A stretch of 64,000 nt of DNA from a phage. Both the position numbers and the translations under genes were made by a program. Position 1 is the first letter of the stretch. Each line of letters opens with the position of its first letter. Under the pieces are notes generated by a model, which did not search any database, was not told where the DNA came from, and saw nothing but the letters and a program-made list of their open reading frames with translations. This document shows, in pieces, positions 2,323 through 38,292 of this stretch. The stretch lies in sequence record PZ445451.1; one strand, written 5' to 3'.

Positions 2323-2339
2323 TATGTTCTCCTTCTAAA

Positions 2340-2774: not shown

Positions 2775-2786
2775 TCTATTCTCCTC

Positions 2787-3607: not shown

Positions 3608-3617
3608 TTTAACCCCC

Positions 3618-6392
3618 TTAGTTTATCAGTTTATTTATGTCTGGTAAAAGATTTATTTCACCTAAGAAATCACCTTCACCTTCCTCTAGCCAACTCTCAT
3701 ATGCTTGTGCATGATTATAGTTACCATCAAAAGAATCTGCAACAAATTTTTCTACAGTTTTTCGAGATGTGCCAGCGCCAAATACACCAAGTTTAATACT
3801 ATTGATCGGTAAAGTGGTGCTTGTTGGTACTTTCTCTGTTGCAACACGGTTGATATCTATAATCTCCTGTACGGTTGTGTTCCATTGTAAGCATTTAACA
3901 CAACGGGTATGCGCTACATACAGTAGGTTTCGCTCTGCCTCTTCCAGTCCTACCCATTCACCAGTTTTTTTATCATAATTGGAAGGAAAATCATTAGCAA
4001 CAATAACCTGATCCCACTCCAAACCTTTAGACTTGTGTGCTGTAGTCAATGTGACTTTTGCTGTAGGAGAATTTCTATGCGTTCTAAGTGTATGTGCTAT
4101 AGTGTTTGCCTTGCCAGAAACTACGATGTTTAACAAGCGTTTAGCATCTGGATCAGCCTCTGCACACTCAACAAATTCATTCCAGTCTGCGTAAGGTAAT
4201 ACAGTTTCATGTTTTACTTTCTCAATATCTCCTCTCCGAAGAGCATTAACACTATCTACCATAGAGATAAAATCCCTGGTATCTACGTTAATAATAATTT
4301 CTTCCCCATCTGCAATACGATCCATTGCCTCCATAAGCAAGGTTAAATTCTTGCGAAAGATGATAGTGTAAGGTTTTGTATAGTCTACAACATCTGATTT
4401 GTAGCTACCTACTACAGTATCAAAGCCTTTACCAACCAAAGGATGACGCAAAGGTTCTTTATCGCTTAAAATCATATTGGCAATGTTTGCCACTTTGGGG
4501 CCAAAACGGAAGCAAGCAGTTAATGGAAGCTCTGCCCCATACTTAGCTGTTTCAATCATCATATTAGAGCTACCTCTAAATTGATAAATGCAGTTGTGGC
4601 TAAGAATTTCATTGCCAAAGAAGTTAGCAGTATCCTCTACTTCAATATCATAATAGATACCCTCACTATCTACAATGTCCACAATCTCTTCTGCCGTTAC
4701 AGTATCACCATCTTTTACCAACACAGACATGCCTTTAAACAAACCCGCTGCCGGAATTAAGTTATATTTGGCACTGTTCACAGAGGACATGCATTCTTTT
4801 AAAGATGCAAACGGAACTATTTCAAGGATCTTTTGTGCAAAACTCAATGCTTCACGATAAGAATTGAAATATTTACGTACACGGTAACGACCTTCCAATT
4901 TAGCAGCACTTACGCTTACACCTGCTTTAATCAGTGAAGAATAGATCGGCATTTCACTTTCTGTCCACTCAAAACTAACTTGTGTTCCTTTACAACCTTG
5001 TGCTCGCAAAGTCACTGTTAGCATTTTTCTTTCATCTACTGCACAATTGATGCTGTGCCAGTGTGGATAAGCAAAATGATAATCTTTATCCTCTAAAAGT
5101 TTAAAACCATTTTGTCCGAATTGTTCAAAGATGTTATTGATCCTTTCTTGATTAATGCCGCGTGAACTTGCTTCAAATACACAAGTAGGAATGCCATATT
5201 GTAAACTGTATGCCATTTCTTTTTCCATAGCAGCTTCACGGTTTTCAACAATATCCAACACCCATAATTTCTGTGCTTTTTCAGAACGTGTACGTTGCCC
5301 CAGTTTAGAAAAACCTTCTTTATCATCGAATTTGTTAGTGATCCCTACTCGGAAACCTAAATCTTTCCTCCACATTAGGTATACCACCATCTGATCATCT
5401 TTCAGAACATAGGATGAAGCCCAAATACGATGGTTATGTGTCATATCTAAAGTTTTACCTGTGGCAGTAATAATATTCCTACCTTTTGTACGTGTAGATA
5501 AAGTCTTATTTGTTACTTTTCTAAATGTAATTTTACCATTAGAATAAGACTCTACCTTATCACCGATTTGTAGGTCTTTCATTGTAACCTGACCATTCTC
5601 GGTATTAAGTACCGTGTTTTCCGACACACATTGGAATTCATCGCCCACTACCACAATTTGTTTTGCAGATTTAGCATTTCGCAGAATAGACAAGAATGCA
5701 GGGTTAACATCCTGGAATTCATCACCAAAAATAATGTCATAACCAAGATCAGCACCTGATAACTCAAACAATTTTACATAGGTGTCATGCGTCATCAAAG
5801 TATCTGTGTTAGGATCAATGCGCTCTCGCCACAATTGTTTTGCATACTTAACTACTTCTGTAATTAGTTTGTGTTCGTTAATACCTTTTCTTTTAATATC
5901 TGCAAGATGTACACCAGGGAAATGTTTACGGCTGATAAAAGGATCATCCGAAAATTCAAACTTACCTACGGTTTGCTTGATCATTAAACCAATCATAGCA
6001 CGAGTTAAAAGTGTTTTCCCTCGTTTATCAATAAGATTATTAATCTTAAATTTCTTTGCTATCTCACTACCTGTACCTGCAACGTTAACATACTGTCCTT
6101 CTGGTCGTGACAGTTTTGCACGTAAACGATGATCCAGGAATTGATAGCAAATGGAATGCAATGTACGGCATTCTACATTTGGTGGCATCTTACGCCGTGC
6201 TTCTTCTGCCATGCTTTTATTGAAAGCTAAGTAAAGAATGCGATCTTCTGTACTGTTAGCCAGCAAATAAAGTGTTGACGTTTTGCCTGATCCAGATTTA
6301 GCTTGGATAGTTAAAAAACGATGGTCTGGAAAAGCCTCCTTAATAGCTGTTTGCTCTTCTGTTGGAGTAAAACTCAACTCTTTCTTAGCCAT
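3618..6392 (-). CDS. SF1 UvrD/PcrA-like DNA helicase, intein-containing precursor
   Basis: Track ORF; start moved to MAKKELSF (ATG 6392). Walker A AKSGSGKTSTL, motif II FGDEFQD, motif III GDEFQ|CIYQFRG split by an in-frame insert, C-terminal TTAHKSKGLEWDQVIV..LLYVAHTRCVK. Confidence 0.85.
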   Translation of the reverse strand: MAKKELSFTPTEEQTAIKEAFPDHRFLTIQAKSGSGKTSTLYLLANSTEDRILYLAFNKSMAEEARRKMPPNVECRTLHSICYQFLDHRLRAKLSRPEGQYVNVAGTGSEIAKKFKINNLIDKRGKTLLTRAMIGLMIKQTVGKFEFSDDPFISRKHFPGVHLADIKRKGINEHKLITEVVKYAKQLWRERIDPNTDTLMTHDTYVKLFELSGADLGYDIIFGDEFQDVNPAFLSILRNAKSAKQIVVVGDEFQCVSENTVLNTENGQVTMKDLQIGDKVESYSNGKITFRKVTNKTLSTRTKGRNIITATGKTLDMTHNHRIWASSYVLKDDQMVVYLMWRKDLGFRVGITNKFDDKEGFSKLGQRTRSEKAQKLWVLDIVENREAAMEKEMAYSLQYGIPTCVFEASSRGINQERINNIFEQFGQNGFKLLEDKDYHFAYPHWHSINCAVDERKMLTVTLRAQGCKGTQVSFEWTESEMPIYSSLIKAGVSVSAAKLEGRYRVRKYFNSYREALSFAQKILEIVPFASLKECMSSVNSAKYNLIPAAGLFKGMSVLVKDGDTVTAEEIVDIVDSEGIYYDIEVEDTANFFGNEILSHNCIYQFRGSSNMMIETAKYGAELPLTACFRFGPKVANIANMILSDKEPLRHPLVGKGFDTVVGSYKSDVVDYTKPYTIIFRKNLTLLMEAMDRIADGEEIIINVDTRDFISMVDSVNALRRGDIEKVKHETVLPYADWNEFVECAEADPDAKRLLNIVVSGKANTIAHTLRTHRNSPTAKVTLTTAHKSKGLEWDQVIVANDFPSNYDKKTGEWVGLEEAERNLLYVAHTRCVKCLQWNTTVQEIIDINRVATEKVPTSTTLPINSIKLGVFGAGTSRKTVEKFVADSFDGNYNHAQAYESWLEEGEGDFLGEINLLPDINKLIN
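4593..5630 (-). mobile_element. Intein (346 aa) inserted in helicase motif III
   Basis: Insert begins CVSENTVLNTENG (block A), has TxxH-like MTHNHRI (block B) and ends ..YYDIEVEDTANFFGNEILSHN followed by extein Cys. Removing it restores GDEFQCIYQFRG. Coordinates derived from track residue numbering (residues 268-613). Confidence 0.75.
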
Positions 6393-9847: not shown

Positions 9848-10114
9848 CTAATTACTGTTAGATCTGTACTCTGTCTTCCATTCACAATGGTAAACTTCAA
9901 CAGGTTCTAACTTCCAGTGTTCAGGAACTAGTTCAGGACAATATCTACAAAAGAGAAATAGATAGATAACTAAGACAGGTATTAAATAGTAAAATGGTAT
10001 ACGATCATAACCATACTTACGAGATAACATGTAGACATATAGATAGGGTATAACAATTAATCCTATAACTATAAGTAAGAAGAGAAGTATAAACCTTAGT
10101 GTAGTAACATCCAT
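9848..10114 (-). CDS. Small membrane protein (88 aa)
   Basis: Track ORF; two strongly hydrophobic segments. Confidence 0.5.
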   Translation of the reverse strand: MDVTTLRFILLFLLIVIGLIVIPYLYVYMLSRKYGYDRIPFYYLIPVLVIYLFLFCRYCPELVPEHWKLEPVEVYHCEWKTEYRSNSN

Positions 10115-10278
10115 AGTATTCTCCTATACAGTAATATACTCTGTTCCTGCCCCTCCATGAGTGACAGGAACAATATCTATAGAGAATACTAACTCGCTTC
10201 GCTCGTCACCTTTCAGGTTTAGGGTAGCATGTTTTTCTGAAAAAGTCAATACTCTCCACAAAACTTTACAAAATACTT

Positions 10279-19339: not shown

Positions 19340-19397
19340 TTGACAACGTTTTTTAATCTGATAAGATGTATCACATAGGGCGGCAATAGTGCCGCTC
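19340..19397 (+). promoter_or_regulatory. sigma70-like promoter (TTGACA/TAAGAT) plus conserved 5' leader hairpin (GGGCGGCAATAGTGCCGCTC)
   Basis: Seen directly upstream of gene 19420. Confidence 0.6.
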
Positions 19398-19419
19398 ATA
19401 ACAGAAGAGAGAAATAATC

Positions 19420-19692
19420 ATGGCATCATATAGCGCATCAATGATCGTAACGGGCATGACTGGTAAACCTATGCGCGGTGGCGGATCTTTCGCTAACATC
19501 AATATTGATGGGCGTTTATCCCTGGATGCAGCGATCACCGTGGCACGGGAAACATTTAAAAAAGAATGTAATTTCAATAAACAAGATTATCTCGGCTTCG
19601 TTATTGAAAAAACAGCGCGCTTTGTTGATTATAAAAGCCCGAAAATGATCGACACTACACTAAAAGCGCAAGATGTAGCATTTTTGCTTTAA
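19420..19692 (+). CDS. Hypothetical protein (90 aa)
   Basis: Track ORF preceded by promoter-hairpin-SD (AGAAGAGAG) unit. Confidence 0.55.
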   Translation: MASYSASMIVTGMTGKPMRGGGSFANINIDGRLSLDAAITVARETFKKECNFNKQDYLGFVIEKTARFVDYKSPKMIDTTLKAQDVAFLL

Positions 19693-19695
19693 GGC

Positions 19696-19755
19696 TTGAC
19701 ACTGAAAAATAATTTAGTAATATATACCACATAGGGCGGGAAATGGTTTCCCGCC
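19696..19755 (+). promoter_or_regulatory. sigma70-like promoter (TTGACA/TAATAT) plus conserved leader hairpin (GGGCGGGAAATGGTTTCCCGCC)
   Basis: Seen directly upstream of gene 19778. Confidence 0.6.
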
Positions 19756-19777
19756 AAATCAAAGAAAGGGTAACACA

Positions 19778-20140
19778 ATGAGCAAGCAAATCAATACTAT
19801 CATGTTAAACCTGGTATCTTTCCGCGATGACGTGAAAAATCTTTCGCGTGATGCAGTGGATGCACGGATCGAAAGCTATCGCACACAGATCGCAACATTA
19901 CCGTTAAAACGTGATCAACATGCCGCTAATATGATGCTTGGTGCTATGATTAAAAAGATGATTCAGTGTGATCTTACCCTGGCTTATGAATATGCTGGCG
20001 ATCTCTTTGTAACGTATAATAAGCCCGTTCCAGGTATGAGCACCACGGAAGAATTGCATGCCTTAAATTTGCGACAAGATGCATGGGATAACATGCGCCG
20101 TGTTATGGTATGGGCCGAAAGCGGTAAAATTTACGAATAA
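19778..20140 (+). CDS. Hypothetical protein (120 aa)
   Basis: Track ORF after promoter-hairpin unit. Confidence 0.55.
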   Translation: MSKQINTIMLNLVSFRDDVKNLSRDAVDARIESYRTQIATLPLKRDQHAANMMLGAMIKKMIQCDLTLAYEYAGDLFVTYNKPVPGMSTTEELHALNLRQDAWDNMRRVMVWAESGKIYE

Positions 20141-20146
20141 AAACGG

Positions 20147-20200
20147 TTGACATTGCACTAAAACCTGATAAGCTATCTTAAAGCGGGAATTGTTCCCGCT
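20147..20200 (+). promoter_or_regulatory. sigma70-like promoter (TTGACA) plus leader hairpin variant (AGCGGGAATTGTTCCCGCT)
   Basis: Seen directly upstream of small gene 20219. Confidence 0.55.
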
Positions 20201-20218
20201 TACATAGGATAAAACTTT

Positions 20219-20365
20219 ATGAAACAATATGTAATGAGTATCCACACCAAAAACGGCGCTACTGTTACGACTCCGGCACGGTTTGCACTTGTAAACCGTT
20301 GCAAGAGACTAAAACGAGAGTTAAAAAATAACCGTGCAACGGGCTTTAAACGCTGGGGAGGATAA
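20219..20365 (+). CDS. Small basic protein (48 aa, MKQYVMSIHTKNGATVTTPARFALVNRCKRLKRE..)
   Basis: Manual ORF below size cut-off; follows promoter-hairpin unit; stop 2 nt before next start. Confidence 0.4.
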   Translation: MKQYVMSIHTKNGATVTTPARFALVNRCKRLKRELKNNRATGFKRWGG

Positions 20366-20367
20366 TC

Positions 20368-20628
20368 TTGTTTTTTCTAAAAGTTTGTGATAATGTGATC
20401 GCTTTTGAACATGCTACAACGTTCGACCTGGCGAGATACGCTATCAGGTTTAAAGATAATGTTTATCCCCGTGCTGGCGGCGGTTACACTATTTTTAATC
20501 ACCGTAACGCTCAATTAACGGATATAACTAATCCAGATCCTGGAGTGTATCGGATAGGCTGGCTACCGTCAAAAGACGCTGCAAGCATGTTTAAGGTGTG
20601 TAAACTACTAACAGAAGAGGCGAACTAA
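20368..20628 (+). CDS. Hypothetical protein (86 aa), probable TTG start
   Basis: Track ORF; start codon TTG preceded by GGGGAGGA SD. Confidence 0.45.
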   Translation: MFFLKVCDNVIAFEHATTFDLARYAIRFKDNVYPRAGGGYTIFNHRNAQLTDITNPDPGVYRIGWLPSKDAASMFKVCKLLTEEAN

Positions 20629-20629
20629 C

Positions 20630-21184
20630 ATGGGGCGTGAATATGTGATCCAGTCCTGGGTAAAGCATGATGCTAATGATCCGCGCATAATACCAGATGA
20701 CATGATCGATCACATGGTAGGGTATAGCGGGGAGCAGATAGGAAATCGAGCGGCAAAGAGCAACGGCAACACCAGGACGCGATCCGTTCGTCCTGGATGG
20801 CTGGCGAATGGTAACGCTGACATTGCAAGCGCCGCAGATCCAAGCGATGACGCTAAAAATAATCCCTTGTACAGCATTGATCCGGCTTTTAAGGTGTTGG
20901 AAGAGTATCCCGCTAAATTAGCCGCACTAGATAAGGCATACGAAGAAAAGCGCATGGCCTGGACTGTATACAACACCGCTAAAATGGTGCTAGATGCAAA
21001 ACTAATTAAAGCCCAGGAGAAGATCAATAAACTTGTTACCATAGCGCAAGAGGAAGACCAGGGCGACCAGGAGGAAGAGGAAGAAATCATGCCTACCCTG
21101 GAAGAGGAAGAGATCCAGCCATACATGCCGACAGAAGAGGAAAAAAGACAAGCCCTAAAAAATTATGAAAATTGCATTGTGTAA
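20630..21184 (+). CDS. Hypothetical protein (184 aa) with acidic C-terminal tail
   Basis: Track ORF; C-terminus EEDQGDQEEEEEIMPTLEEEE. Confidence 0.55.
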   Translation: MGREYVIQSWVKHDANDPRIIPDDMIDHMVGYSGEQIGNRAAKSNGNTRTRSVRPGWLANGNADIASAADPSDDAKNNPLYSIDPAFKVLEEYPAKLAALDKAYEEKRMAWTVYNTAKMVLDAKLIKAQEKINKLVTIAQEEDQGDQEEEEEIMPTLEEEEIQPYMPTEEEKRQALKNYENCIV

Positions 21185-21187
21185 GGC

Positions 21188-21244
21188 TTGACATATGCAA
21201 ACAAGCCCCGTAATATGTACCACATAAAGCGGGGCAACGCCCCA
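21188..21244 (+). promoter_or_regulatory. sigma70-like promoter (TTGACA-N17-TAATAT) plus leader hairpin variant (GCGGGGCAACGCCCC)
   Basis: Seen directly. Confidence 0.55.
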
Positions 21245-21265
21245 TAAGGTGAAATAAAAAATCAC

Positions 21266-21293
21266 TTGACACCTGAAATCAGTAAGCTATAAT
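21266..21293 (+). promoter_or_regulatory. Near-consensus sigma70 promoter (TTGACA-N16-TATAAT), second of a tandem pair
   Basis: Seen directly, about 40 nt upstream of gene 21331. Confidence 0.6.
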
Positions 21294-21330
21294 GCTTATA
21301 TAGATTGAAACATTACTAAGGAATAAAAGC

Positions 21331-21510
21331 ATGGCTATTATTGCAAAGACTGAGATCGTAGGTTTAGATTCTATCATCCTGGCATATGAGGAAGCTATAG
21401 AAATGTATGTGGTTTCCTATGGTGATTATATCCGTGAATATAAATCTATTGATCTAGCTTTTGAATGCTATATTCGCCAGGTCAATAAAGCATATGATGA
21501 TTATCGTTAA
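21331..21510 (+). CDS. Small hypothetical protein (59 aa)
   Basis: Manual ORF just below size cut-off (MAIIAKTEIVGLDSIILAYEE..), downstream of tandem promoters. Confidence 0.45.
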   Translation: MAIIAKTEIVGLDSIILAYEEAIEMYVVSYGDYIREYKSIDLAFECYIRQVNKAYDDYR

Positions 21511-21529
21511 AAGTTTTAGTCTTGTGCTA

Positions 21530-21558
21530 TTGACAACGAACGATAGTACAAGCATAAT
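21530..21558 (+). promoter_or_regulatory. sigma70-like promoter (TTGACA-N17-CATAAT)
   Basis: Seen directly upstream of gene 21606; no leader hairpin in this copy. Confidence 0.5.
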
Positions 21559-21605
21559 AACTTTTATCGGGAATACTCCTAACTAATCAAAAGAGATTAA
21601 AGACT

Positions 21606-21971
21606 ATGGCTAAAAATATCAATGTTTCTGCTTATGCTACCCTGGCTAACACTGCTAAAATTGAACTATCCAGCATTGAAGCGGTACATATTAGCGCCCG
21701 TCGCTGGTTTCAAAAGTCTTATGGTAATACTTATTTCTCTTTGATGGTTGACGTTGAGATCGGCGGTAAACTGATCGAAGTAGTTAACGTTCCGTTTCAA
21801 TATGGTTATGGGGATCATTTTGATACCGTTGCCCTAGAAGAGTTTAGCAAGGTTATCAACCTGGAAGGTAAAGAGTTTTCAAATTATGCTTACCTTTCCC
21901 GCTTTTGCCGTGATAATGGGATCGCTGTATACAGTCATGCAAGCGATGTAAAACGTAAAAAAGATTTATAA
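21606..21971 (+). CDS. Hypothetical protein (121 aa)
   Basis: Track ORF. Confidence 0.55.
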   Translation: MAKNINVSAYATLANTAKIELSSIEAVHISARRWFQKSYGNTYFSLMVDVEIGGKLIEVVNVPFQYGYGDHFDTVALEEFSKVINLEGKEFSNYAYLSRFCRDNGIAVYSHASDVKRKKDL

Positions 21972-21977
21972 AAAGCA

Positions 21978-22036
21978 TTGACAGCACGAATAAAAAGCAT
22001 ATAATACTTATATCGAGAGCGGGAATAGTTCCCGCC
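21978..22036 (+). promoter_or_regulatory. sigma70-like promoter (TTGACA/TATAAT) plus leader hairpin (GCGGGAATAGTTCCCGC)
   Basis: Seen directly upstream of gene 22060. Confidence 0.6.
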
Positions 22037-22059
22037 TCACTGAAAAAGAGATTAACATC

Positions 22060-22299
22060 ATGGCTAAATCTAAAATGTACAACGGTCACAAAAATAAAAC
22101 TCATTGGAATGTAAGCCTTTGGATTAATAATGATGAATCGTTATACTTATACGCTGTAGGTTTAATAAATGAGTGCGGCAATAAAGATAAAGCGGCGGAT
22201 CTGATGTGCTACAGATTAAAACAGGATGGAATCACTCATACACCTGATGGTTTCAAGTATAGTAAAACTGCAATCCGTGCCGCTATGGTAGGAATGTAA
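22060..22299 (+). CDS. Hypothetical protein (79 aa)
   Basis: Track ORF after promoter-hairpin unit. Confidence 0.55.
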   Translation: MAKSKMYNGHKNKTHWNVSLWINNDESLYLYAVGLINECGNKDKAADLMCYRLKQDGITHTPDGFKYSKTAIRAAMVGM

Positions 22300-22308
22300 T
22301 AAAAGCAG

Positions 22309-22368
22309 TTGACAACGTTTTTTAATCTGGTATAGTTTATCGCATAGGGCGGGAAATGGTTTCCCGCC
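22309..22368 (+). promoter_or_regulatory. sigma70-like promoter (TTGACA/TATAGT) plus conserved leader hairpin (GGGCGGGAAATGGTTTCCCGCC)
   Basis: Seen directly; identical hairpin to 19734 copy. Confidence 0.6.
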
Positions 22369-22390
22369 AAATCAAAGAAAGGTTATCATT

Positions 22391-22618
22391 ATGGCTATCG
22401 TTATTGTTCGCGTATCCGGCACGGTTGGAATCTCCCAGGTAGTAGCAGTTATCACCGAGAAGAAAGGGGATGATCTTCACTCCTCATTGAATAGCTGGGC
22501 GGTCGCTAACTTTGGGCAATGGTCGAGCGTTGAGTACATCGAATCCTACCAGGTGCCAACGATTAGCCTGACCGATCTCAACGTTGATCGTCTGTTATGC
22601 CTGGATCAATTAAACTAA
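22391..22618 (+). CDS. Hypothetical protein (75 aa)
   Basis: Track ORF after promoter-hairpin unit. Confidence 0.55.
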   Translation: MAIVIVRVSGTVGISQVVAVITEKKGDDLHSSLNSWAVANFGQWSSVEYIESYQVPTISLTDLNVDRLLCLDQLN

Positions 22619-22626
22619 AAATAATA

Positions 22627-22684
22627 TTGACAAGACAACTAAAATTAGTAAAATGTAATTCATAGGGCGGCAATAGTGCCGCCC
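22627..22684 (+). promoter_or_regulatory. sigma70-like promoter (TTGACA/TAAAAT) plus leader hairpin (GGGCGGCAATAGTGCCGCCC)
   Basis: Seen directly; perfect 8-bp stem. Confidence 0.6.
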
Positions 22685-22705
22685 CTAGTAAGAGAGATTA
22701 TCAAA

Positions 22706-22921
22706 ATGGCTAATATCCGCACCTTGTTAAAAAATGCAAAGCAAGTTTTATTTTCAGATGACGAGTATTTCAACAAAGACATTACAGGCGTGAAAAATTT
22801 AAAAGACGTGAAGGATGTTATCGGTATCCGTGGATCTTTACGTAAAGGTGACATATACGGTAACAAGGTGCAATATAAACTGTCAAAAGATTATGATTTT
22901 ACTTTGACAATTATTTCATAA
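22706..22921 (+). CDS. Hypothetical protein (71 aa)
   Basis: Track ORF; start moved to MANIRT (ATG 22706) because the track start lies inside the leader hairpin. Confidence 0.55.
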   Translation: MANIRTLLKNAKQVLFSDDEYFNKDITGVKNLKDVKDVIGIRGSLRKGDIYGNKVQYKLSKDYDFTLTIIS

Positions 22922-22927
22922 AACTAC

Positions 22928-22988
22928 TTGTAAACCTGGTAAAATAAAGTAAACTATATTCATCAAGGCGGTGGAATAGCCCACCGCC
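22928..22988 (+). promoter_or_regulatory. Weak promoter-like sequence plus leader hairpin variant (GGCGGTGGAATAGCCCACCGCC)
   Basis: Seen directly; stem arms co-vary relative to other copies. Confidence 0.5.
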
Positions 22989-23012
22989 TAACAAAGAGAA
23001 GAGGAAAACATC

Positions 23013-23183
23013 ATGATCACTTTCACTACCCGTGAAGCCGCTCGCAACGTTGCACGTAAAGTTAACGCCGCCAACCTGGGCGCTACGCTTAAAGCCCCGG
23101 TGAAAGATGAATCAGGAAAATGGATCTTTCCTGGTCTGCGTCACGCTGATAAGCTGGGAACATTAACGTTAAAAAATAAATAA
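23013..23183 (+). CDS. Small hypothetical protein (56 aa, MITFTTREAARNVARKVNAANLGATLKAP..)
   Basis: Manual ORF below size cut-off; AGAGAAGAGG SD after hairpin. Confidence 0.45.
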   Translation: MITFTTREAARNVARKVNAANLGATLKAPVKDESGKWIFPGLRHADKLGTLTLKNK

Positions 23184-23190
23184 TATCCGC

Positions 23191-23249
23191 TTGACAGTAG
23201 CATCGTTTATAAGTAAAGTAACAACAACGGCGGGAAATGGTTTCCCGCC
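23191..23249 (+). promoter_or_regulatory. sigma70-like promoter (TTGACA/TAAAGT) plus leader hairpin (GGCGGGAAATGGTTTCCCGCC)
   Basis: Seen directly upstream of gene 23270. Confidence 0.6.
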
Positions 23250-23269
23250 ATCAATAAAGAGATAAGATT

Positions 23270-23629
23270 ATGAAATCAGTAAAAGCAATTAAAACTTACA
23301 TTGTGTCGGCTATTTCTTTTGATGGTACTACAACCGAAAAAGAAAAAATCACCGAACTGATGCGCCGTTTTAACTCTGAATACTGGTATCAATCTAATCG
23401 TGATCGTTATAATAACAATATGGTACAAGCTGTTAAAAGCTGGTTACAAGGTTTACCGTCAGATATCAATATCGCTTTTAATTATAACGAGATCGATCAA
23501 TTATTAATTGAATGGAAGTACATAAAAGAAACAAGCAAAGAAACAACCGTTACCCGTGAGCGGGAAAATTATTGGTTATATATTGCAAGCATGATCGTAA
23601 CTTTGGCAAAATATCATAACGTAGCGTAA
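23270..23629 (+). CDS. Hypothetical protein (119 aa)
   Basis: Track ORF after promoter-hairpin unit. Confidence 0.55.
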   Translation: MKSVKAIKTYIVSAISFDGTTTEKEKITELMRRFNSEYWYQSNRDRYNNNMVQAVKSWLQGLPSDINIAFNYNEIDQLLIEWKYIKETSKETTVTRERENYWLYIASMIVTLAKYHNVA

Positions 23630-23643
23630 TCGAGAGGAAAAAC

Positions 23644-23781
23644 ATGAACGCATCACAGCAGATCGAAAAATTCAACCGCAACAAAGCGAGTAAAGATTGG
23701 AACGAAGAGATCACCAAGAAAGGCGACAAGCGGAACAAAACAAAAAGAGATCGCAGCAGCAAAAGATACTGGAACGAATAA
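23644..23781 (+). CDS. Small basic protein (45 aa)
   Basis: Manual ORF; GAGAGGAAAAAC-ATG SD; followed directly by terminator. Confidence 0.4.
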   Translation: MNASQQIEKFNRNKASKDWNEEITKKGDKRNKTKRDRSSKRYWNE

Positions 23782-23782
23782 C

Positions 23783-23809
23783 AAAAAAGGGCGCAATAAG
23801 CGCCCTTTT
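23783..23809 (+). terminator. Rho-independent terminator (GGGCGC-AATAA-GCGCCC-TTTT)
   Basis: Seen directly. Confidence 0.65.
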
Positions 23810-23899
23810 AGCTTATATAGAGGCTTGTTGCTTATAGGCAAGGGTAACGCCAGGATAAGCCTATAAACCACGTTAGACGGCTTTACAGGAGCTTTAAAA

Positions 23900-24082
23900 A
23901 TGAAATTAGAGGAAATAAGCAAGGCACTAGCCCAGGGGCAAAGGTTATGCGCCCGATATCGTGATCAATATGGCTTCATAACTAGCGGCGTGATCCTGGG
24001 GATGGAAGGCAATAAGATTTTTATTGACACGTTGAAAAACGTTGTATATAGTGACAATATAATCTCAATAAAACATATATGA
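23900..24082 (+). CDS. Hypothetical protein (60 aa)
   Basis: Track ORF; GGAG SD. Confidence 0.45.
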   Translation: MKLEEISKALAQGQRLCARYRDQYGFITSGVILGMEGNKIFIDTLKNVVYSDNIISIKHI

Positions 24083-24090
24083 GGCAAGAA

Positions 24091-24492
24091 ATGAAAAAAT
24101 TATTGATCGCTGGTTTACTCTCTTTTGGCATGGTTGGAACATCTAGCGCGGCGATATCCTCCACAGTAGCAGAATTAAGCGCCGTTGATGCAATGGAAAA
24201 CGTCATGATCATTAATAATGCGATCCCCGATGAAATCATGGAGGATTCACACATGATCGCTTATGGTGCTGTTACACAACTAACGGCAAAAATAGATAAA
24301 TCTATTGTTAATGGCTTAAATGAAGATGTACCATGTGAAATTATTACCAGTGTGCTCACTACTCAAAATTTTACGCCGTGGCTAAAAAGTATTCAAAAAG
24401 TACACAGTACAGCCGCAGATCGTAGCAATGAAAAACTAGTGTCAGCACTTGCAACGTATACCCTAGCAAAATGCACCGAAATAAAAGATTGA
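24091..24492 (+). CDS. Putative secreted protein (133 aa)
   Basis: Track ORF; start moved to MKKLLIAGLLSFGMVGTSSA (signal-peptide-like) with GAGG SD. Confidence 0.55.
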   Translation: MKKLLIAGLLSFGMVGTSSAAISSTVAELSAVDAMENVMIINNAIPDEIMEDSHMIAYGAVTQLTAKIDKSIVNGLNEDVPCEIITSVLTTQNFTPWLKSIQKVHSTAADRSNEKLVSALATYTLAKCTEIKD

Positions 24493-24517
24493 CAACATAG
24501 AAAGCACGTTATAAGAT
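24489..24517 (+). promoter_or_regulatory. sigma70-like promoter (TTGACA-N17-TAAGAT)
   Basis: Seen directly; -35 overlaps stop of upstream gene. Confidence 0.5.
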
Positions 24518-24539
24518 ACACACAACAAAGGAGAACTAC

Positions 24540-24842
24540 ATGAACGGCATAGCTAAAACGTTTTTTCTTTTTTCTGGTGTAAATGATCCATCAATAAAAG
24601 TCGATAGCGTAAAAGAAAACAATACTATCACCGCTAAATTGTTTCAAGATGAAACAAATAACGTGCTAATCATTAATCTTAAAGAAATAACAAAAGGTTA
24701 TTATACTATTGCTTACCATGCGATCTATAATGCTGGTACTAGTGAGGAAGTGCAAACAAGCAACAACGAAAGCGCGGCGCTACCTGGTGATCTGGTGCTG
24801 GGCGTTATCAGTTTAATTGTCAATGATTTTTTTAAGGAGTAA
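24540..24842 (+). CDS. Hypothetical protein (100 aa)
   Basis: Track ORF; AAAGGAG SD. Confidence 0.5.
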   Translation: MNGIAKTFFLFSGVNDPSIKVDSVKENNTITAKLFQDETNNVLIINLKEITKGYYTIAYHAIYNAGTSEEVQTSNNESAALPGDLVLGVISLIVNDFFKE

Positions 24843-25100
24843 AACCATGCCCTATTTACATTTATTTTTCGGTATCTTATTGACAGGATCTTTTTTCTTC
24901 TGTATGCTTGTTTCTATTGTAAACCACGTTTTAAAACATTAAGGAAACAGCATGAAAATTATTCCCGTACAGTATAGCGTAATAAATCCAGCATATGAGG
25001 AAGGAAGGAAAACAAGCATGGCTTTATGTTGTATTGCTACTATAGCCATGTTATTATACACTGTGTTTTAATAGGTTTTATAGTTGTACGCTTTAAAGGC

Positions 25101-25153
25101 TTGACAATTTTTTGTTATGCTTTAAAATATATCTTGAAAACGGCAAAGGCCGC
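25101..25153 (+). promoter_or_regulatory. sigma70-like promoter (TTGACA/TAAAAT) plus short leader hairpin (CGGCAAAGGCCG)
   Basis: Seen directly upstream of gene 25172. Confidence 0.5.
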
Positions 25154-25171
25154 AAACAAAAGGGTAAAATT

Positions 25172-25495
25172 ATGAAATCTGTGATCGGTGTTTATTTGGA
25201 TAATTCTGATTTTTTCTATCATCGCGCTCGTTTCCTTGATGCTATTGATATGATAGAATCAGGCTTTAAAGAATACCGCCTTGCACATGATGACCTGGAA
25301 GCATTACAGGGCAATAGTGTTTTTACATTGCAAGCGAAAGCACTATGTAAAAGCCGGATCGACATTGCGAGCAAAAAGATAGAACGCGGCATGTCCTGGT
25401 TGCGCACCGCAGAAATCAACATGGGGCAATGGTACGGCAAAAACTTAGAAAATAAACATACCTTTGTCAATGTAGAAAATATTGAAGATTATTGA
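25172..25495 (+). CDS. Hypothetical protein (107 aa)
   Basis: Track ORF; start moved to MKSVIGVY downstream of the promoter. Confidence 0.55.
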   Translation: MKSVIGVYLDNSDFFYHRARFLDAIDMIESGFKEYRLAHDDLEALQGNSVFTLQAKALCKSRIDIASKKIERGMSWLRTAEINMGQWYGKNLENKHTFVNVENIEDY

Positions 25496-25558
25496 TTGAC
25501 AGCACATCTAACGAGTAGTATATTGTATCTCATAGAGCGGGGAAATGGTTTCCCCGCC
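25496..25558 (+). promoter_or_regulatory. sigma70-like promoter (TTGACA-N17-TATATT) plus leader hairpin (GCGGGGAAATGGTTTCCCCGC)
   Basis: Seen directly; stem lengthened by one compensated G-C pair. Confidence 0.6.
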
Positions 25559-25577
25559 TTAAAAGAAGAGATAAGCT

Positions 25578-25862
25578 ATGAAGATCACAAAAGCACTTTC
25601 CAACTATGCAGCACGTCGCGGATTATGCTTATCCGTTGAAAACTTAGGGAAAGAAGATTTTTTGTGTTTTTGGGAGCTTGAAAATGAAAGTGAATGGTTG
25701 TTCTCTTATTCTATCTGCGAAGATCAAAACGGTTGTTTGTTAACCTGGCGCGGTAATATCTATCTACCGGAAGAAATCAAAGAAGAATTGCCAGGCACGA
25801 TCATGACTGAGAAACAGCTTAAGGAAGTGATTAATTTTGTAGGGCAAAACATTAAAAAATAA
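25578..25862 (+). CDS. Hypothetical protein (94 aa)
   Basis: Track ORF after promoter-hairpin unit. Confidence 0.55.
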   Translation: MKITKALSNYAARRGLCLSVENLGKEDFLCFWELENESEWLFSYSICEDQNGCLLTWRGNIYLPEEIKEELPGTIMTEKQLKEVINFVGQNIKK

Positions 25863-25863
25863 T

Positions 25864-25922
25864 TTGACACTAGGCAAACAACGTAGTAAAGTTTATCACA
25901 TAGGGCGGCAATAGTGCCGCTC
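25864..25922 (+). promoter_or_regulatory. sigma70-like promoter (TTGACA-N17-TAAAGT) plus leader hairpin (GGGCGGCAATAGTGCCGCTC)
   Basis: Seen directly; same hairpin variant as 19379. Confidence 0.6.
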
Positions 25923-25943
25923 ATAACAGAAGAGAAACAAATC

Positions 25944-26114
25944 ATGATCCCGACTATGTTTTATGTATCGCGCAAAGGTCACAATATTTTTTGGTCTGAA
26001 GATTTAAATGAAGCCATGACGTTTGCCCGTGATCGTGTTGCTATCGGTGGCGTTAACATTACTGTAACCGATGAAAACGGCATTGAATACTATAACGGCG
26101 ACGATGAAGAGTAA
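25944..26114 (+). CDS. Hypothetical protein (56 aa)
   Basis: Track ORF; start moved to MIPTMFYV because the track start lies in the hairpin. Confidence 0.5.
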   Translation: MIPTMFYVSRKGHNIFWSEDLNEAMTFARDRVAIGGVNITVTDENGIEYYNGDDEE

Positions 26115-26121
26115 TTAATAA

Positions 26122-26142
26122 GGCGGGGGAGTATTCCCCGCC
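26122..26142 (+). promoter_or_regulatory. Leader-type hairpin (GGCGGGGGAGTATTCCCCGCC) without an upstream promoter
   Basis: Seen directly between genes 25944 and 26162. Confidence 0.5.
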
Positions 26143-26161
26143 GTCAATAAAGAGGTAAATC

Positions 26162-26431
26162 ATGAAAATATCTTTGGACGTTGCAATCAAGGCCATCGAA
26201 TCCGGTTACACCCTGGTAAAAGATGATAAGGCTAAAATAGTGCATCATGTTAACAAGGAAACAGGCGAAAGCATGATCACATATAAAGCCGCCTACTTTC
26301 TCCAATCAGTAGCAGATCCGCGCGTACAACGCCAGGTTACAGCGGCTATTGCTAAAAAATTATGTGCTTTACAGGGCACAAGTTTTAACGAGATCGCCCC
26401 GTGTTTTGACTGGTCGAGCTTGAAAAAATAG
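26162..26431 (+). CDS. Hypothetical protein (89 aa)
   Basis: Track ORF; AAAGAGG SD after hairpin. Confidence 0.55.
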   Translation: MKISLDVAIKAIESGYTLVKDDKAKIVHHVNKETGESMITYKAAYFLQSVADPRVQRQVTAAIAKKLCALQGTSFNEIAPCFDWSSLKK

Positions 26432-26432
26432 T

Positions 26433-26494
26433 TTGACAATATGCTGTTATCTGGTAAAGTGTACGACATAGGGCGAGGCAATAAGGCAACGCCC
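26433..26494 (+). promoter_or_regulatory. sigma70-like promoter (TTGACA/TAAAGT) plus divergent leader hairpin (GGGCGAGGCAATAAGGCAACGCCC)
   Basis: Seen directly. Confidence 0.5.
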
Positions 26495-26513
26495 ATTAAT
26501 GAGGGGTAGAATC

Positions 26514-26618
26514 ATGTTAGAGAAAATTTTCACGGTTGTAATAGTGGGCCTGGCGTTATCGGTTGGATTGGTTGCAACTATGGCTAACATGATCCTATCT
26601 TCCCACGGTATTGGATAA
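26514..26618 (+). CDS. Small hydrophobic peptide (34 aa, MLEKIFTVVIVGLALSVGLVATMANMILSSHGIG)
   Basis: Manual ORF; GAGGGG SD; first ORF after the promoter-hairpin unit. Confidence 0.3.
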   Translation: MLEKIFTVVIVGLALSVGLVATMANMILSSHGIG

Positions 26619-26628
26619 GGTGAATCAA

Positions 26629-26844
26629 ATGATCACGAATAAGACAGGTAAAACAGAATTTTTACGCAGCTTGCAAATAGGTAAACCTGAGATCTGGCAT
26701 TGCACTAAATCCGCGCATAATGAAATGAAAGATTTTACCGCTACTTTACAACGTGTTAAAATATCTATCACACAGAAAAAAGCCTTGTTAGTAGTAGAAA
26801 ACGAGATCCCGCAAACCATTATTATTGTCGAGCGTACAGCATGA
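26629..26844 (+). CDS. Hypothetical protein (71 aa)
   Basis: Track ORF; start moved to MITNKTGK (AAGGTGA SD). Confidence 0.5.
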   Translation: MITNKTGKTEFLRSLQIGKPEIWHCTKSAHNEMKDFTATLQRVKISITQKKALLVVENEIPQTIIIVERTA

Positions 26845-27227
26845 AAACTGAAATCATTAACGAAATGATCAACGGCTATAAAGAAGCCTTTATTTTTGCC
26901 GAACCAGCGACGGATCACAATGGGGAATATATTGAGAATCTAGACGATTATGATTTTTCTCCTAGCGCCCTGAAACGTATTACCAGCGATGTGACCGCCT
27001 TTTGTAGTGCCAATGTTGCCGCTATCTCTGAGGCAATGAGCGACGGCGCTACAGCAAACCAGATCGGGAATGATTTACATTTTACCCGTAACGGTCACGG
27101 CGTAGGTTTTTGGGATCGCCCTGAAATATACACTACTAACACCGCCAACCGTTTAACTGATGCAGCTAAATTAATGCCATTGGTGCATGCTTACATTGGT
27201 GAAGATAATTTGATTTATATTGACTAA
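26841..27227 (+). CDS. Hypothetical protein (128 aa)
   Basis: Track ORF; ATGA overlap with upstream gene. Confidence 0.55.
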   Translation: MKTEIINEMINGYKEAFIFAEPATDHNGEYIENLDDYDFSPSALKRITSDVTAFCSANVAAISEAMSDGATANQIGNDLHFTRNGHGVGFWDRPEIYTTNTANRLTDAAKLMPLVHAYIGEDNLIYID

Positions 27228-27232
27228 AAGTG

Positions 27233-27291
27233 TTGACACCGATCCCCAATATGTTATTATTTACCACGTAAGCGGGAAATGGTTTCCCGCC
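27233..27291 (+). promoter_or_regulatory. sigma70-like promoter (TTGACA/TATTAT) plus leader hairpin (GCGGGAAATGGTTTCCCGC)
   Basis: Seen directly. Confidence 0.6.
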
Positions 27292-29106: not shown

Positions 29107-29184
29107 TAAATGATAATCATTCTTATTTATAGCTGATTATTTATGCAATAAACTGCATAATGCAATAATGATAATCATTCTTAA
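29107..29184. promoter_or_regulatory. Two Fur-box-like sites (AAATGATAATCATTCTTA; ATAATGATAATCATTCTTA)
   Basis: Seen directly; second copy matches 16 of 18 positions of Fur consensus ATAATGATAATCATTATC. Confidence 0.55.
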
Positions 29185-29542
29185 CTTATGACCATCTAAC
29201 CTATAAAATAATAAGTTATCTAACTAAATTAAAACTAATTATCCCACCTTTATTTATAACTTACTTTTACTATCTCATTGATAACCTTATATTAAACAAC
29301 AATAACCAATATAAATCATTACTAAGCTAACTATAATCTATCTAACCCTTAAAACTATAACTATAATCTATCGAATTGTTGCACAAAGTAACTATTAAAT
29401 TGTTAGTAACTTTACTAAATAATTAATATCCTATCTATTTATGATCTAATCTTTACCTTACTATCTATTACCTAAATAACCATTTCATACAGAAATTATT
29501 TCATACAATAACTATAACAAGAAATATAATTCGCAAGCGTAT

Positions 29543-29703
29543 CATTAGCAGCCTATGCCGGACACATAGGCGGCTAATAATAACGCAACTACACACCCCA
29601 CATAATAACCATCACCGATAGTTATTATTTGTGCTTATGTAGCTTGCAACAATTGCAAGCGCAACAATATACATGGTATATTGTATCCCTTACATTGTTG
29701 CGG
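29543..29703. repeat. Cluster of nested inverted repeats (13-bp stem ATTAGCAGCCTATG/CATAGGCGGCTAAT; CTTGCAACAATTGCAAG; CGCAACAAT...ATTGTTGCG enclosing ATATAC-ATG-GTATAT)
   Basis: Seen directly in the 1.8-kb non-coding region. Confidence 0.6.
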
Positions 29704-30042
29704 TGCGTTATTATTAGCTAATGTTTGGAACATTGGCTATAATATAAGCTACATATAATAAGCTATACAATAATAAACATAATGAATAATGACACTGATG
29801 ATCATAATGCGCCACCTTCCAGGGGGCGCTATGTGAACACAAAGAAATCTTTCTTGTCAAGAAAAATATCACCATTATTGCGCAAAATTATTTATATCTG
29901 AACAGATGATTTTTCATACTATTGCCCCCTATAGTATCCCTATTTGTTGTAATGTATTCCCCTATTTGTTGAGCCTACTCTCTTAAAAGCGCAATAAATT
30001 AGAATTATCTTGATTTTTAGGTAGTTTTATAGTATAGAAAAT

Positions 30043-30066
30043 ATGCAAATGATAATCATTATCAGC
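30043..30066. promoter_or_regulatory. Fur-box-like site (GCAAATGATAATCATTATC)
   Basis: Seen directly; AATGATAATCATTATC is a 16/16 match to the 3' part of the Fur consensus. Confidence 0.6.
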
Positions 30067-30229
30067 TATCTTCCACAGGTGGCACTATTTCACGCCAGAT
30101 CATTTCATTTGGCAAGGTGTATATAGATGTTTAGAAATGCCAAGCCATTGATTTACTTAGAATTTATCTGTTTTGTTGTGAGTAGTGCCTTTCTTGCTCA
30201 GAAAATAATCAAAAGTCTTATAAGTCATT

Positions 30230-30264
30230 GAATGATAATGCAAATGATAATTATTCTCATTGAT
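30230..30264. promoter_or_regulatory. Fur-box-like site (GAATGATAATGCAAATGATAATTATTCTCATT)
   Basis: Seen directly. Confidence 0.5.
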
Positions 30265-30378
30265 ATTTGAGGGGGACGGTCGGCAGAAATCGGGGGCGCT
30301 AAAAATCGCGTTAAGCACCTCTCGCAAGCGAGCAGTATTTTGCGGCAAGTTATTGATATTATTGGCTTTACGCTTATG

Positions 30379-30485
30379 GAAAGGGGGTGTGTCGAAATAA
30401 ATCGGGTATACCGGAAAATTTTTGTGGCATAGATATTTATTTGTCTATATTATGTACAAAGGGGTGTGTTAAAAATAATAGGTAT
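30379..30485. repeat. Two copies of AAAGGGGTGTGT..AAATAA..GGTATA motif about 73 bp apart
   Basis: Seen directly; third partial copy at ~17919. Confidence 0.45.
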
Positions 30486-30717
30486 ATATAGAATAATTGA
30501 TAGGGAAATCCTATACTAATCCCTCCATTAATGATGTTCCTAGGTTGCTGTTCTTGTAACAGATGAAAAGACGCTGTATGATGTGTGGCATGAGACGTAA
30601 ATTTATAAGATGCAAATAATGCTTGCATTGAATAGAAATGTCTGTATAGTGGTTTGCATACCGCGCACGACGCGTTTCCATTTTCAATAAAATGTTAGCA
30701 TTATGGGGAGGTAGAAA

Positions 30718-31179
30718 ATGAGACAACTATCTATACTGGAAGCACATGTGCAATGTGTTGCAGATTATGTCAAAGAACACTCAAGTTTGTTGGATGTAAC
30801 CTGTGCAGTGCAAAATGATGTAGGTATTGTCTGTGTGCGACATATCTTATCTGAAACTCGTTATGAAGTATTTCGTGCCAAGTTGTTTGGATGTGATCAA
30901 GTGCATGTAAACTTCTTGGATTCCAATTTTCGTTATGCTTTAGAAAATATTGATGATTATCTTCCTTGCTCTCCGACCGGATATGTGATGATAGCAGCAA
31001 ATGAAGTAACACCAAACAACAGTGAGCGGGAAACTTTGTTACGGAAGAAAATACGCCAACTGCAAGTGTTGAATGAACTGAAAGAAGAGATTGAAAAAGA
31101 ACTGAAAGAAGATTTTGGTATGCTTCCAAAAGACGCTTTGAAATGGTTTGATGAACTAGGAGAGGAAAGTTATGAATAA
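30718..31179 (+). CDS. Hypothetical protein (153 aa); N-terminus paralogous to 36932 gene
   Basis: Track ORF; GGGGAGG SD; shares ..H.SLL.V...V....G.V.V.H.LS.T.Y.VF....... with 36932..37183. Confidence 0.55.
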   Translation: MRQLSILEAHVQCVADYVKEHSSLLDVTCAVQNDVGIVCVRHILSETRYEVFRAKLFGCDQVHVNFLDSNFRYALENIDDYLPCSPTGYVMIAANEVTPNNSERETLLRKKIRQLQVLNELKEEIEKELKEDFGMLPKDALKWFDELGEESYE

Positions 31180-37631: not shown

Positions 37632-37866
37632 AGAATTAGGTATGCGAGTATACAGTGAGTGGACTCCAAGCAATGGCCCAGGAGTTGTTGCAGCTAAATG
37701 TATCAATGGTCGTATTGAGTACCTGGAAGGGTATGAAGATAATGAAGAGTTAGTAGATTATGCTAAATCTTTTATTGAAGATGATACAGACTTTATTGTG
37801 TTATATGATACAGGAGAGTTAGAGTATGGATATGATGGAGATGGGGATATCTTTGAACTTCAATAA
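37624..37866 (+). CDS. Hypothetical acidic protein (80 aa)
   Basis: Track ORF; start moved to MIKELGMRVY. Confidence 0.5.
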   Translation: MIKELGMRVYSEWTPSNGPGVVAAKCINGRIEYLEGYEDNEELVDYAKSFIEDDTDFIVLYDTGELEYGYDGDGDIFELQ

Positions 37867-38073
37867 GAGTAGTAAGTAAGGTATAAAGAGTATATAGTTA
37901 GTTATAGAGTTAGTAACATTACATATACTCTTTCCATGTATAACATGGAATATTCTCTACCTCGCTATCGCTCGGTATATAAGATTAGGGTAGCATGTTT
38001 TTTACGAAAAGTAAAACTGTTTATACCGATTGATAGCAGGTTTTTAATAGATTCTATCTATGAGGAGTAGAAA

Positions 38074-38292
38074 GTGTACAAATTATATAAAGGAAAAGAT
38101 AAGTTTACGGGTAATACATCTGGTTTCTATGTAACACCACGTGGTGTTGCTGTGTTCGATTGGATCTCTGGTACGCCAGATCGTGAAATGATCTCTCTTG
38201 TAAAACTGTCAGAACAAGATTATACTTACGGTGACATTACAACATTCTATTCTCGTGCAGAAAATCCAAAACTGATTGCGGAGTGGGAATAA
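38074..38292 (+). CDS. Hypothetical protein (72 aa), GTG start
   Basis: Track ORF; GAGGAG SD before GTG. Confidence 0.5.
   Translation: MYKLYKGKDKFTGNTSGFYVTPRGVAVFDWISGTPDREMISLVKLSEQDYTYGDITTFYSRAENPKLIAEWE

Follow-up and report, generated by a model that had tools for sequence, protein, structure and literature searches.

A repeated non-coding element in a gap between plus-strand genes

The gap at 37867-38073 lies in a 64,000-nt stretch of DNA (the window) that corresponds, at 100% identity, to record bases 64676-128675 of Escherichia phage PaulScherrer (Bas60, MZ501100.1), window positions being record positions minus 64675. The phage is phi92-like and is classified in the genus Justusliebigvirus of the Stephanstirmvirinae. 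The flanking genes are read on the plus strand, with bas60_0169 on one side and, on the other, the cluster bas60_0171-0174, three of whose products are putative DNA-binding or transcription factors. What the initial annotation called the gap before gene 38074 is not empty in GenBank, which has a CDS of 44 aa there, bas60_0170, probably spurious; a 45-aa CDS, bas60_0093, is annotated over the other copy of the repeat within the window (Table 1).

Two boxes mark the repeat. The 18-mer of the right box, TTAGGGTAGCATGTTTTT, matches twice in the 64 kb (at 10219 in copy 1 and 37985 in copy 2), both times on the plus strand and even when three mismatches are tolerated, against a mean of 0.12 matches at that tolerance in shuffled sequence. 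The left box, CTCGCTATCGCTCG, reads CTCGCT-TCGCTCG in copy 1, one base shorter than in copy 2, and the boxes are separated by 13 nt in copy 1 and by 10 nt in copy 2. A third copy, on the minus strand, lies outside the window at record ~142875-142919; the gap that contains it separates the divergent genes bas60_0253 and bas60_0254. When the whole 150-kb genome was searched with R1, a covariance model of the promoter and hairpin described below, exactly three matches were obtained, and the next best score was 18.6 bits.

The earlier proposal that the gap holds the second copy of a conserved element was borne out, in that the element is repeated, non-coding and kept in distant relatives whose flanks can no longer be aligned. 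Its sequence is also as had been described; the strand and the boundaries were wrong. On the plus strand, on which the element had been described, the blocks have no coherent reading, whereas the minus strand gives a -35 hexamer, a TGn, a -10 hexamer and then the loop of an RNA hairpin. The limits of 37960-38012 proved too small, since the homologous unit runs from ~38015 to ~37886, some 75 nt further left, and a size of ~60 nt is less than half of what we find: the region that follows the hairpin aligns with the leader of related mobile islands (below), and the unit therefore occupies most of the 37867-38073 gap.

Table 1 Features of the element, its copies and the island homologues. Coordinates are window positions unless another record is named; promoter and RNA features are predicted.
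Feature	Position	Strand	Description and basis
bas60_0170	37936-38070	+	44-aa CDS, GenBank, over copy 2
bas60_0093	10124-10261	-	45-aa CDS, GenBank, over copy 1, on the opposite strand of the element
Left box, copy 2	37961-37974		CTCGCTATCGCTCG
Right-box 18-mer, copy 2	37985-38002	+	TTAGGGTAGCATGTTTTT
R1 match, copy 2	37950-38020	-	69.8 bits
-35 hexamer, copy 2	38010-38015	-	TTTACT, 4/6 against TTGACA; read from sequence
Spacer, copy 2	37993-38009	-	17 nt between -35 and -10, includes GTTTTT; sequence
Extended -10, copy 2	37987-37995	-	TGc 37995-37993 and TACCCT 37992-37987; sequence and family conservation
Predicted start, copy 2	37978-37982	-	~37980 (A), 7 nt past the -10; from standard sigma-70 spacing
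Hairpin 2	37958-37977	-	stem UACC (37977-37974)/GGUA (37961-37958), loop GAGCGAUAGCGA (37973-37962); covariation test
Hairpin 3	37933-37949	-	UCCAUGU-UAU-ACAUGGA; compensatory variants in island homologues
Stem 4	37886-37932	-	(A)AGAGUAUAU ... AUAUACUCU(U), with internal loop, last structured part of the predicted RNA; fold
R1 match, copy 1	10182-10254	-	75.5 bits
Parts of copy 1		-	-35 TTGACT 10249-10244, TGc 10229-10227, -10 TACCCT 10226-10221, hairpin 2 10208-10190
Copy 3 unit	MZ501100.1 142857-142930 (L005 42857-42930)	+	R1 match, 59.8 bits
Island L081	3413-8575		island layout
Island L141 (Citrobacter sp. OP27, CP191518.1)	238-5332		island layout
Islands L140, L149, L152			same integrase-to-primase layout as L081 and L141

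The minus strand carries a host-type promoter sequence

Family members were gathered by two pattern scans of IMG/VR, by BLAST against a phage collection and by one scan of species-representative bacterial genomes; the second IMG/VR scan returned mostly unrelated matches (tRNA genes, G+C-rich chance matches and a separate palindrome family), which were excluded by eye. From the sequences compared, we consider it probable that the repeated element is a host-type (sigma-70 extended -10) promoter followed by an RNA hairpin with a conserved loop, both on the minus strand. Read in that direction, each copy has, in order, TTGACT, TTGACA, TTTACT or TTGATT, a stretch of 17 or 18 nt, a TGn and TACCCTA. 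The -35 hexamer was never part of any search pattern, and a hexamer with at least 4/6 of TTGACA stands 17-18 nt from the -10 in 26 of the 27 distinct family sequences, with at least 5/6 in 21 of them. All 27 members have TG at -15/-14; TGn was part of the extraction pattern, and the members found by BLAST keep it too.

Copy 2 has the sequence make-up of an extended -10 promoter, with TTTACT at 17 nt from TGcTACCCT, in which the -10 has A at position 2 and T at position 6; its weak points are a -35 that agrees with the consensus at only 4/6 positions and TACCCT itself, a weak -10. The sequence between the hexamers varies freely among members. The motif GTTTTT, which the initial annotation had counted as part of the element, is merely promoter spacer, and its T-run is absent from L010, from copy C of Citrobacter phage Tr1 and from all island copies, in which the -35, TG and -10 are kept. 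We saw a single substitution in the right box: phAPEC8 and DE16 have TGG for TGC, which alters only the free position of the TGn. On the minus-strand reading, copy 1, copy B of phAPEC8, L010 and L015 point along their own gene blocks, and copy 3 and its counterpart in Tr1 point toward a PRPP synthetase gene.

The promoter is probably read by the host sigma-70 RNA polymerase; its firing at copy 2, and the start and end of the RNA, are predicted from sequence. For rV5, a relative, promoters of the sigma-70 type have been described, with extended -10 regions in 11 of the 33 predicted (PMC3606486). A simple scan found many ordinary sigma-70-like sites elsewhere in the PaulScherrer genome, and the phAPEC8 record, which annotates promoters and terminators, has none at either of the copies inspected. 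The literature searched held no transcriptome, 5'-end or promoter study of Stephanstirmvirinae and no report of the box sequences in a phage context. Many members also have a palindrome around the predicted start site, which an RNA beginning at that site could not contain and which the promoter reading does not explain. Plus-strand candidates were set aside as well: by eye, none of the sigma-70, sigma-54, sigma-32 and T4 late or middle promoter patterns fits the plus strand, and a TATA-like AT-rich spacer in class A (defined below) occurs in some copies and is missing from L019 and phAPEC8.

A hairpin with a variable stem and a constant loop follows the predicted start

The left box forms the loop of a hairpin (hairpin 2), GAGCG(N1-3)AGCGA, which would lie ~10-30 nt into the predicted transcript. 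The loop is constant in the three copies and the stem varies. Across the family the stem keeps one register, with UACC/GGUA shared by copy 2 and Klebsiella phage FKP3, UGAC/GUUA in copy 1, UUAC/GUAG in Tr1, L019 and the class A copy of phAPEC8, and UGCC/GGUA in L010 and copy C of Tr1. In the distant members L093, L116 and L126 the box is flanked by inverted repeats, namely TATAC/GTATA, CCTATC/GATAGG and TTAAC/GTTAA. The stem is weak (1-2 pairs) in copy 3, phAPEC8 B, L015, L063 and L081.

We carried out a covariation test on an alignment of 17 distinct members. Pairing was found in 72.5% of hairpin 2 cells against 58.9 +/- 3.8% in shuffled alignments, and the covariation score was 0.499 against 0.237, neither value being reached in any of 500 shuffles, though these statistics overstate independence because the aligned sequences are related. 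Control registers obtained by sliding the stem all scored 0.125-0.216. Of the 68 cells that make up the inner four pairs, 60 are paired, with exchanges among CG, AU and UA. G-U pairs occur in 8 cells, each of which would be an A-C mismatch on the plus strand, and the opposite case occurs in 0; this asymmetry therefore points to an RNA made from the strand of the promoter.

Single-sequence folds of the 76-96 nt core were not significant on either strand, and the structure emerged instead from comparison and from the longer minus-strand RNA. Rfam 15 has no match in the window at the gathering threshold, and the matches that it gave at 37800-38100 and in the island leader were of chance level only. 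The 64-kb window contains no tRNA.

The RNA of copy 2, as predicted, would start near 37980 and run leftward against the flanking plus-strand genes. Its product should be a non-coding RNA of three hairpins and at least ~100 nt (37980 to ~37886), as modelled by folding. The minus-strand RNA from 37981 to 37868 (114 nt) folds at -27.1 kcal/mol against -17.2 +/- 3.2 for shuffled sequences (z -3.14, none of 200 as good). The third hairpin has compensatory variants in the island homologues (TTTCATG/CATGAAA and TTCCATG/CATGGAA), and what follows hairpin 2 aligns collinearly with the island leader, at a score of 22 against a null of 10.2 +/- 1.8 (none of 500 as high). We found no minus-strand ORF of at least 20 aa at copy 2, and a terminator scan detected no canonical minus-strand terminator after stem 4. 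On the plus strand, the scan reads the counterpart of hairpin 3 (37932-37950), with TATTCTCT after it, as a weak terminator of the gene upstream.

Three classes of the unit are kept across related phages

The members from phages fall into three classes, which differ in their orientation to the neighbouring genes and in the composition of the region around or behind the start. Class A (copy 2, FKP3/L009, Tr1, L019/phiWec186 and phAPEC8/DE16) is in every case opposed to the flanking genes, and its start region is rich in A+T. Its locus is syntenic: the gene downstream in DE16 shares 37% protein identity with bas60_0171, and the second downstream gene of FKP3 matches bas60_0172. Across five phage lineages the element is antisense and still ~75% identical in DNA, with TGnTACCCTA and the loop intact in all five and a -35 of TTGACT in the two Phapecoctavirus lineages. 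BLAST matches to Phapecoctavirus are limited to window 37950-38015, a short region that, judged by the sequences, amounts to a phylogenetic footprint. Since an antisense copy has been kept at a syntenic site, its orientation is held by selection and is no accident of one genome.

Class B (copy 1, phAPEC8 B, L010 and L015) runs along its gene block. Its start region, around CGAAG, is rich in G+C. Copy 1 stands upstream of bas60_0092, in the same direction as the surrounding minus-strand genes, and its leader (window 10112-10213, minus strand) folds at -33.3 kcal/mol with a z of -3.95. Just after the conserved hairpin of this copy, GUAUUCUC pairs with the Shine-Dalgarno region of bas60_0092 in the predicted structure, so that the copy 1 leader looks like one that controls translation.

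Class C (copy 3, copy C of Tr1, L063 and, probably, L126) occupies a divergent gap and has an A+T-rich tract behind it, of 95-97% A+T in copy 3. The PRPP synthetase gene at which copy 3 points belongs, in PaulScherrer, to a PRPP-synthetase/NAMPT/tRNA block, and a second sigma-70-like promoter lies nearer that gene than copy 3 does. The leaders of Tr1 copy C and L126 hold 5-6 GATC sites per 260 nt, against 1.18 expected. The copies have the same order and orientation in PaulScherrer and phAPEC8. Throughout the Stephanstirmvirinae compared, the unit is conserved and its flanks have diverged.

The unit heads the leader of integrase/primase islands

Outside phages, the unit was found in the IMG/VR contig L081, in Citrobacter sp. 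OP27 (CP191518.1), in two Buttiauxella MAGs and in a Scandinavium MAG. In L081 and these four named genomes it stands directly after an integrase gene and in the same direction; a further sequence, L142 (uncultured bacterium), has the unit and the downstream genes, and no integrase was identified beside the unit. The islands share a layout of integrase, unit, ~700-900 nt of structured non-coding sequence, three small ORFs, of which one is endonuclease VII-like, and a DUF5906/primase-like protein, and their leaders carry repeated CTGTTCCTG/CTGTTCTTG motifs. Five island sequences that had been kept out of model building scored 51.7-60.9 bits with R1. In sequence these copies come closest to the class C units of phages with related hosts.

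When island proteins were compared by tblastn with the PaulScherrer genome and the loci examined in its relatives, no homologue was found at E 1e-3, and among the proteins and loci compared the regulatory unit is the only thing common to both. Over 8-13 kb the island genes seen encode integrases, DUF5906/primase-like proteins, endonuclease VII, a resolvase and methylases, and the islands may be satellites. The island leader had no match in 5,426 complete E. coli genomes, and the scan of species-representative bacterial genomes for the unit gave no match in Escherichia.

A promoter-leader common to lytic phages and mobile islands suggests, at the level of sequence, regulatory mimicry or exchange between them. 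One specific form of this idea, which we think rather unlikely, is that the loop and the TACCCTA promoter act as the signal of an infection factor for the three phage units, and that the islands of Citrobacter, Buttiauxella and Scandinavium copied the promoter-leader in front of their replication genes in order to sense or exploit infection. If this were true, it would be a new regulatory RNA signal between helper and satellite, and would point to a new family of satellites of large lytic myoviruses. The island connection is the part of this work most worth following.

Alternative explanations of the element

Of the other accounts that we considered, the one that survives best is that the element acts as DNA, either as a transcription-primed origin, made of a promoter and an unwinding region downstream of it as in T4 ori(uvsY) and ori(34), or as a site of the phage's site-specific recombinase, with the hairpins forming in DNA. 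We judge it unlikely; of its two versions the promoter-primed origin is the more plausible and the recombinase site the less so, and the role would be most apt for class C. There are three copies in a 150-kb genome, of which copy 3 sits at a divergent strand switch and at the minimum of cumulative GC skew, next to the A+T tract, and the GATC sites of Tr1 and L126 exceed expectation as given above. The island unit, moreover, stands between integrase and primase-like genes at the head of ~800 nt of non-coding DNA, and a serine recombinase is encoded by the phage and by one island. However, GC skew here just tracks the direction of transcription and is uninformative as a sign of an origin, copy 2 has neither a GATC cluster nor the A+T features, and the asymmetry of G-U pairs and A-C mismatches in hairpin 2 indicates RNA from one strand. 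As for recombination, the spacing of the conserved blocks varies by 4 nt, which would be unusual for the core site of a recombinase, and the identical order and orientation of the copies in PaulScherrer and phAPEC8 give no sign of recombination between them. An origin primed by a promoter of the copy 2 type would in any case be compatible with a promoter and RNA hairpin, and not opposed to it.

It is improbable that copy 2 is an inactive relic, derived by duplication from the working promoter-leader of copies 1 and 3 and now decaying in the wrong orientation, with no function of its own. Its -35, TTTACT, is weaker than those of copies 1 and 3, and it points against the local genes with no gene downstream, as a relic might; against this, the antisense class A copy is syntenic in at least five diverged lineages with TGnTACCCTA and the loop intact.

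Improbable, too, is an intrinsic terminator or attenuator on the plus strand, in which the two boxes would pair (GCUAUC/GGUAGC) round an inner hairpin and a U-run would end transcription of bas60_0169. The boxes do show partial complementarity, their spacer is in many cases a palindrome (ACCTttcAGGT, ACCCttcgGGGT, TAATATATTA), and six T follow the boxes, in the direction of the genes, in all class A copies. The plus-strand fold is nevertheless no better than chance, at -12.8 kcal/mol against -12.5 for shuffled sequences (z -0.12, and -0.32 in a second fold), and the terminator scan calls nothing within the element, only the separate hairpin at 37932-37950. Variation among the members points the same way: the T-run is lost in L010, Tr1 copy C and all islands while the -35, TG and -10 stay, the change of TGC to TGG breaks a pair of the stem and spares the promoter, and copies 1 and 3 face the wrong way for such a terminator.

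That copy 2 is part of a small plus-strand protein gene, bas60_0170, is scarcely credible in spite of the GenBank CDS and its ATG-initiated ORF, since that ATG lies within a hairpin and lacks a Shine-Dalgarno sequence, and conservation tracks the promoter boxes and stem pairs, not codons. As annotated, the shared block would be translated from one strand of the element in copy 1, where its CDS is bas60_0093, and from the other in copy 2, and the conservation therefore cannot come from coding. No reading frame is conserved on one strand among the relatives, which either lack the bas60_0170 ORF or have another in its place. Tr1, DE16, phiWec186 and the B copy of phAPEC8 have no annotated CDS over the element, and in FKP3 the element is swallowed by the over-extended start of the next gene. 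Both bas60_0170 and bas60_0093 are probably annotation artefacts.

Comparison with known systems and proposed function

The promoter part resembles other sigma-70 extended -10 promoters in its -35 near TTGACA, its 17-18 nt spacer, the TG at -15/-14 and a -10 of the form TAnnnT. It differs from them in that TACCCTA is invariant even at the normally free middle bases, in its constant coupling to a conserved hairpin within the first 35 nt, and in being one of only three of its kind among the many ordinary sites of the genome. Judged by its sequence, the unit appears to be an early promoter of phage type that is coupled to a conserved RNA motif in its leader, one for which Rfam has no match.

Like the nut sites of lambda, the unit occurs in few copies per genome, each with a hairpin close to its promoter in which the loop is conserved and the stem varies, but it is not itself a nut site. 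The boxB hairpin of nut, which is bound by N, has a GNRA-like pentaloop, in contrast to the 11-13 nt loop with tandem AGCGA seen here; one copy of the unit (copy 2) faces against genes, unlike nut sites; and a boxA (CGCTCTTTA-like, with at most one mismatch) was absent within ~260 nt in 21 of 21 members examined. Copy 2 also recalls the OOP RNA of lambda, with which it shares a constitutive-looking host-type promoter in an intergenic gap that is directed toward the 3' end of the upstream gene and makes, or in our case would make, a short structured non-coding RNA. It differs from OOP in having no clear terminator and in a 5' module that is common to two sense leaders.

The cross-activated promoters of P2 and P4 and the CI RNA of P4 offer a precedent for a regulatory non-coding unit that is common to a phage and to integrase/primase islands, and, as in the P4 immunity leader, the unit in the islands heads a long structured leader before replication genes. 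Here, by contrast with P2/P4, it is the core promoter and RNA hairpin that are common, and not an upstream activator site, and neither the unit nor the island leader matches C4/CI in Rfam. The PeSL cassettes of T4-type phages are also repeated intergenic units that combine a host-type early promoter with a stem-loop; they are numerous and flank small ORFs, and their stem-loop lies ahead of the promoter. The present unit differs from PeSLs so described in having three copies, a hairpin after the start site and a conserved loop sequence.

We hold any specific downstream mechanism with much less confidence than the reading as promoter plus hairpin. By analogy with boxB, the loop of hairpin 2 is probably a recognition site on the nascent RNA for a predicted trans-acting factor, which would then co-regulate the transcripts of copies 1, 2 and 3. 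Copy 2 would then yield a short RNA with a regulatory or antisense role. Transcription converging from this copy, in combination with the plus-strand hairpin at 37932-37950, would act as an attenuator of read-through out of bas60_0169 into bas60_0171-0174. More speculatively, the loop would have its perfect complement in a plus-strand mRNA that crosses copy 2, and this mRNA might engage in loop-loop pairing with the RNAs of the other copies. Loop conservation over a covarying stem usually marks a site recognised by protein or RNA, so the motif offers a handle for finding the regulator. For annotation, two tiny CDSs listed as hypothetical proteins are probably a promoter and non-coding RNA, and three predicted transcription start points are added for a widely used model phage of the BASEL collection.

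Other features of the genome and of the sequences searched

Four further observations were made along the way. On the plus strand at window ~19340-27270 (record 84015-91940), an array of strong sigma-70-like promoters occupies ~90-nt gaps among small early genes. These promoters read TTGACA, 16-17 nt, TAnnnT, often with AAAAA before (examples begin at record 84015, 86984, 87302, 90171 and 91108), and many have ~5-10 nt behind them the block CATAGGGCGG(C/G)AA(T/A)(A/G)G, which constitutes a second, different promoter-proximal motif. At window ~29130-30720 (record 93807-95393), ~1.6 kb contain a single tiny CDS, bas60_0146 (39 aa); rV5 also has a "non-coding" block (PMC3606486).

Beside copy 3 (L005 42790-42875), a piece of ~44 nt around TTGCGTTTGTCAACACCTTTTTGG has BLAST matches of ~82% identity within annotated proteins of many Felixounavirus genomes (E 0.1), which are probably chance or a common promoter-like string. 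Finally, L029 (2033-2161) and ~15 IMG/VR contigs (L030, L031, L038, L040, L042 and others), otherwise unrelated, have a near-perfect palindrome of ~130 nt upstream of the gene for the large terminase. Its arm, TACCCTATCCCCCCC(A/T)ACGAGCG(A/G)AGCGAG, contains the two blocks of the element without a TGn or a -35 at the matching position, and both kinship to the element and an artefact of the search pattern are possible explanations of the resemblance.
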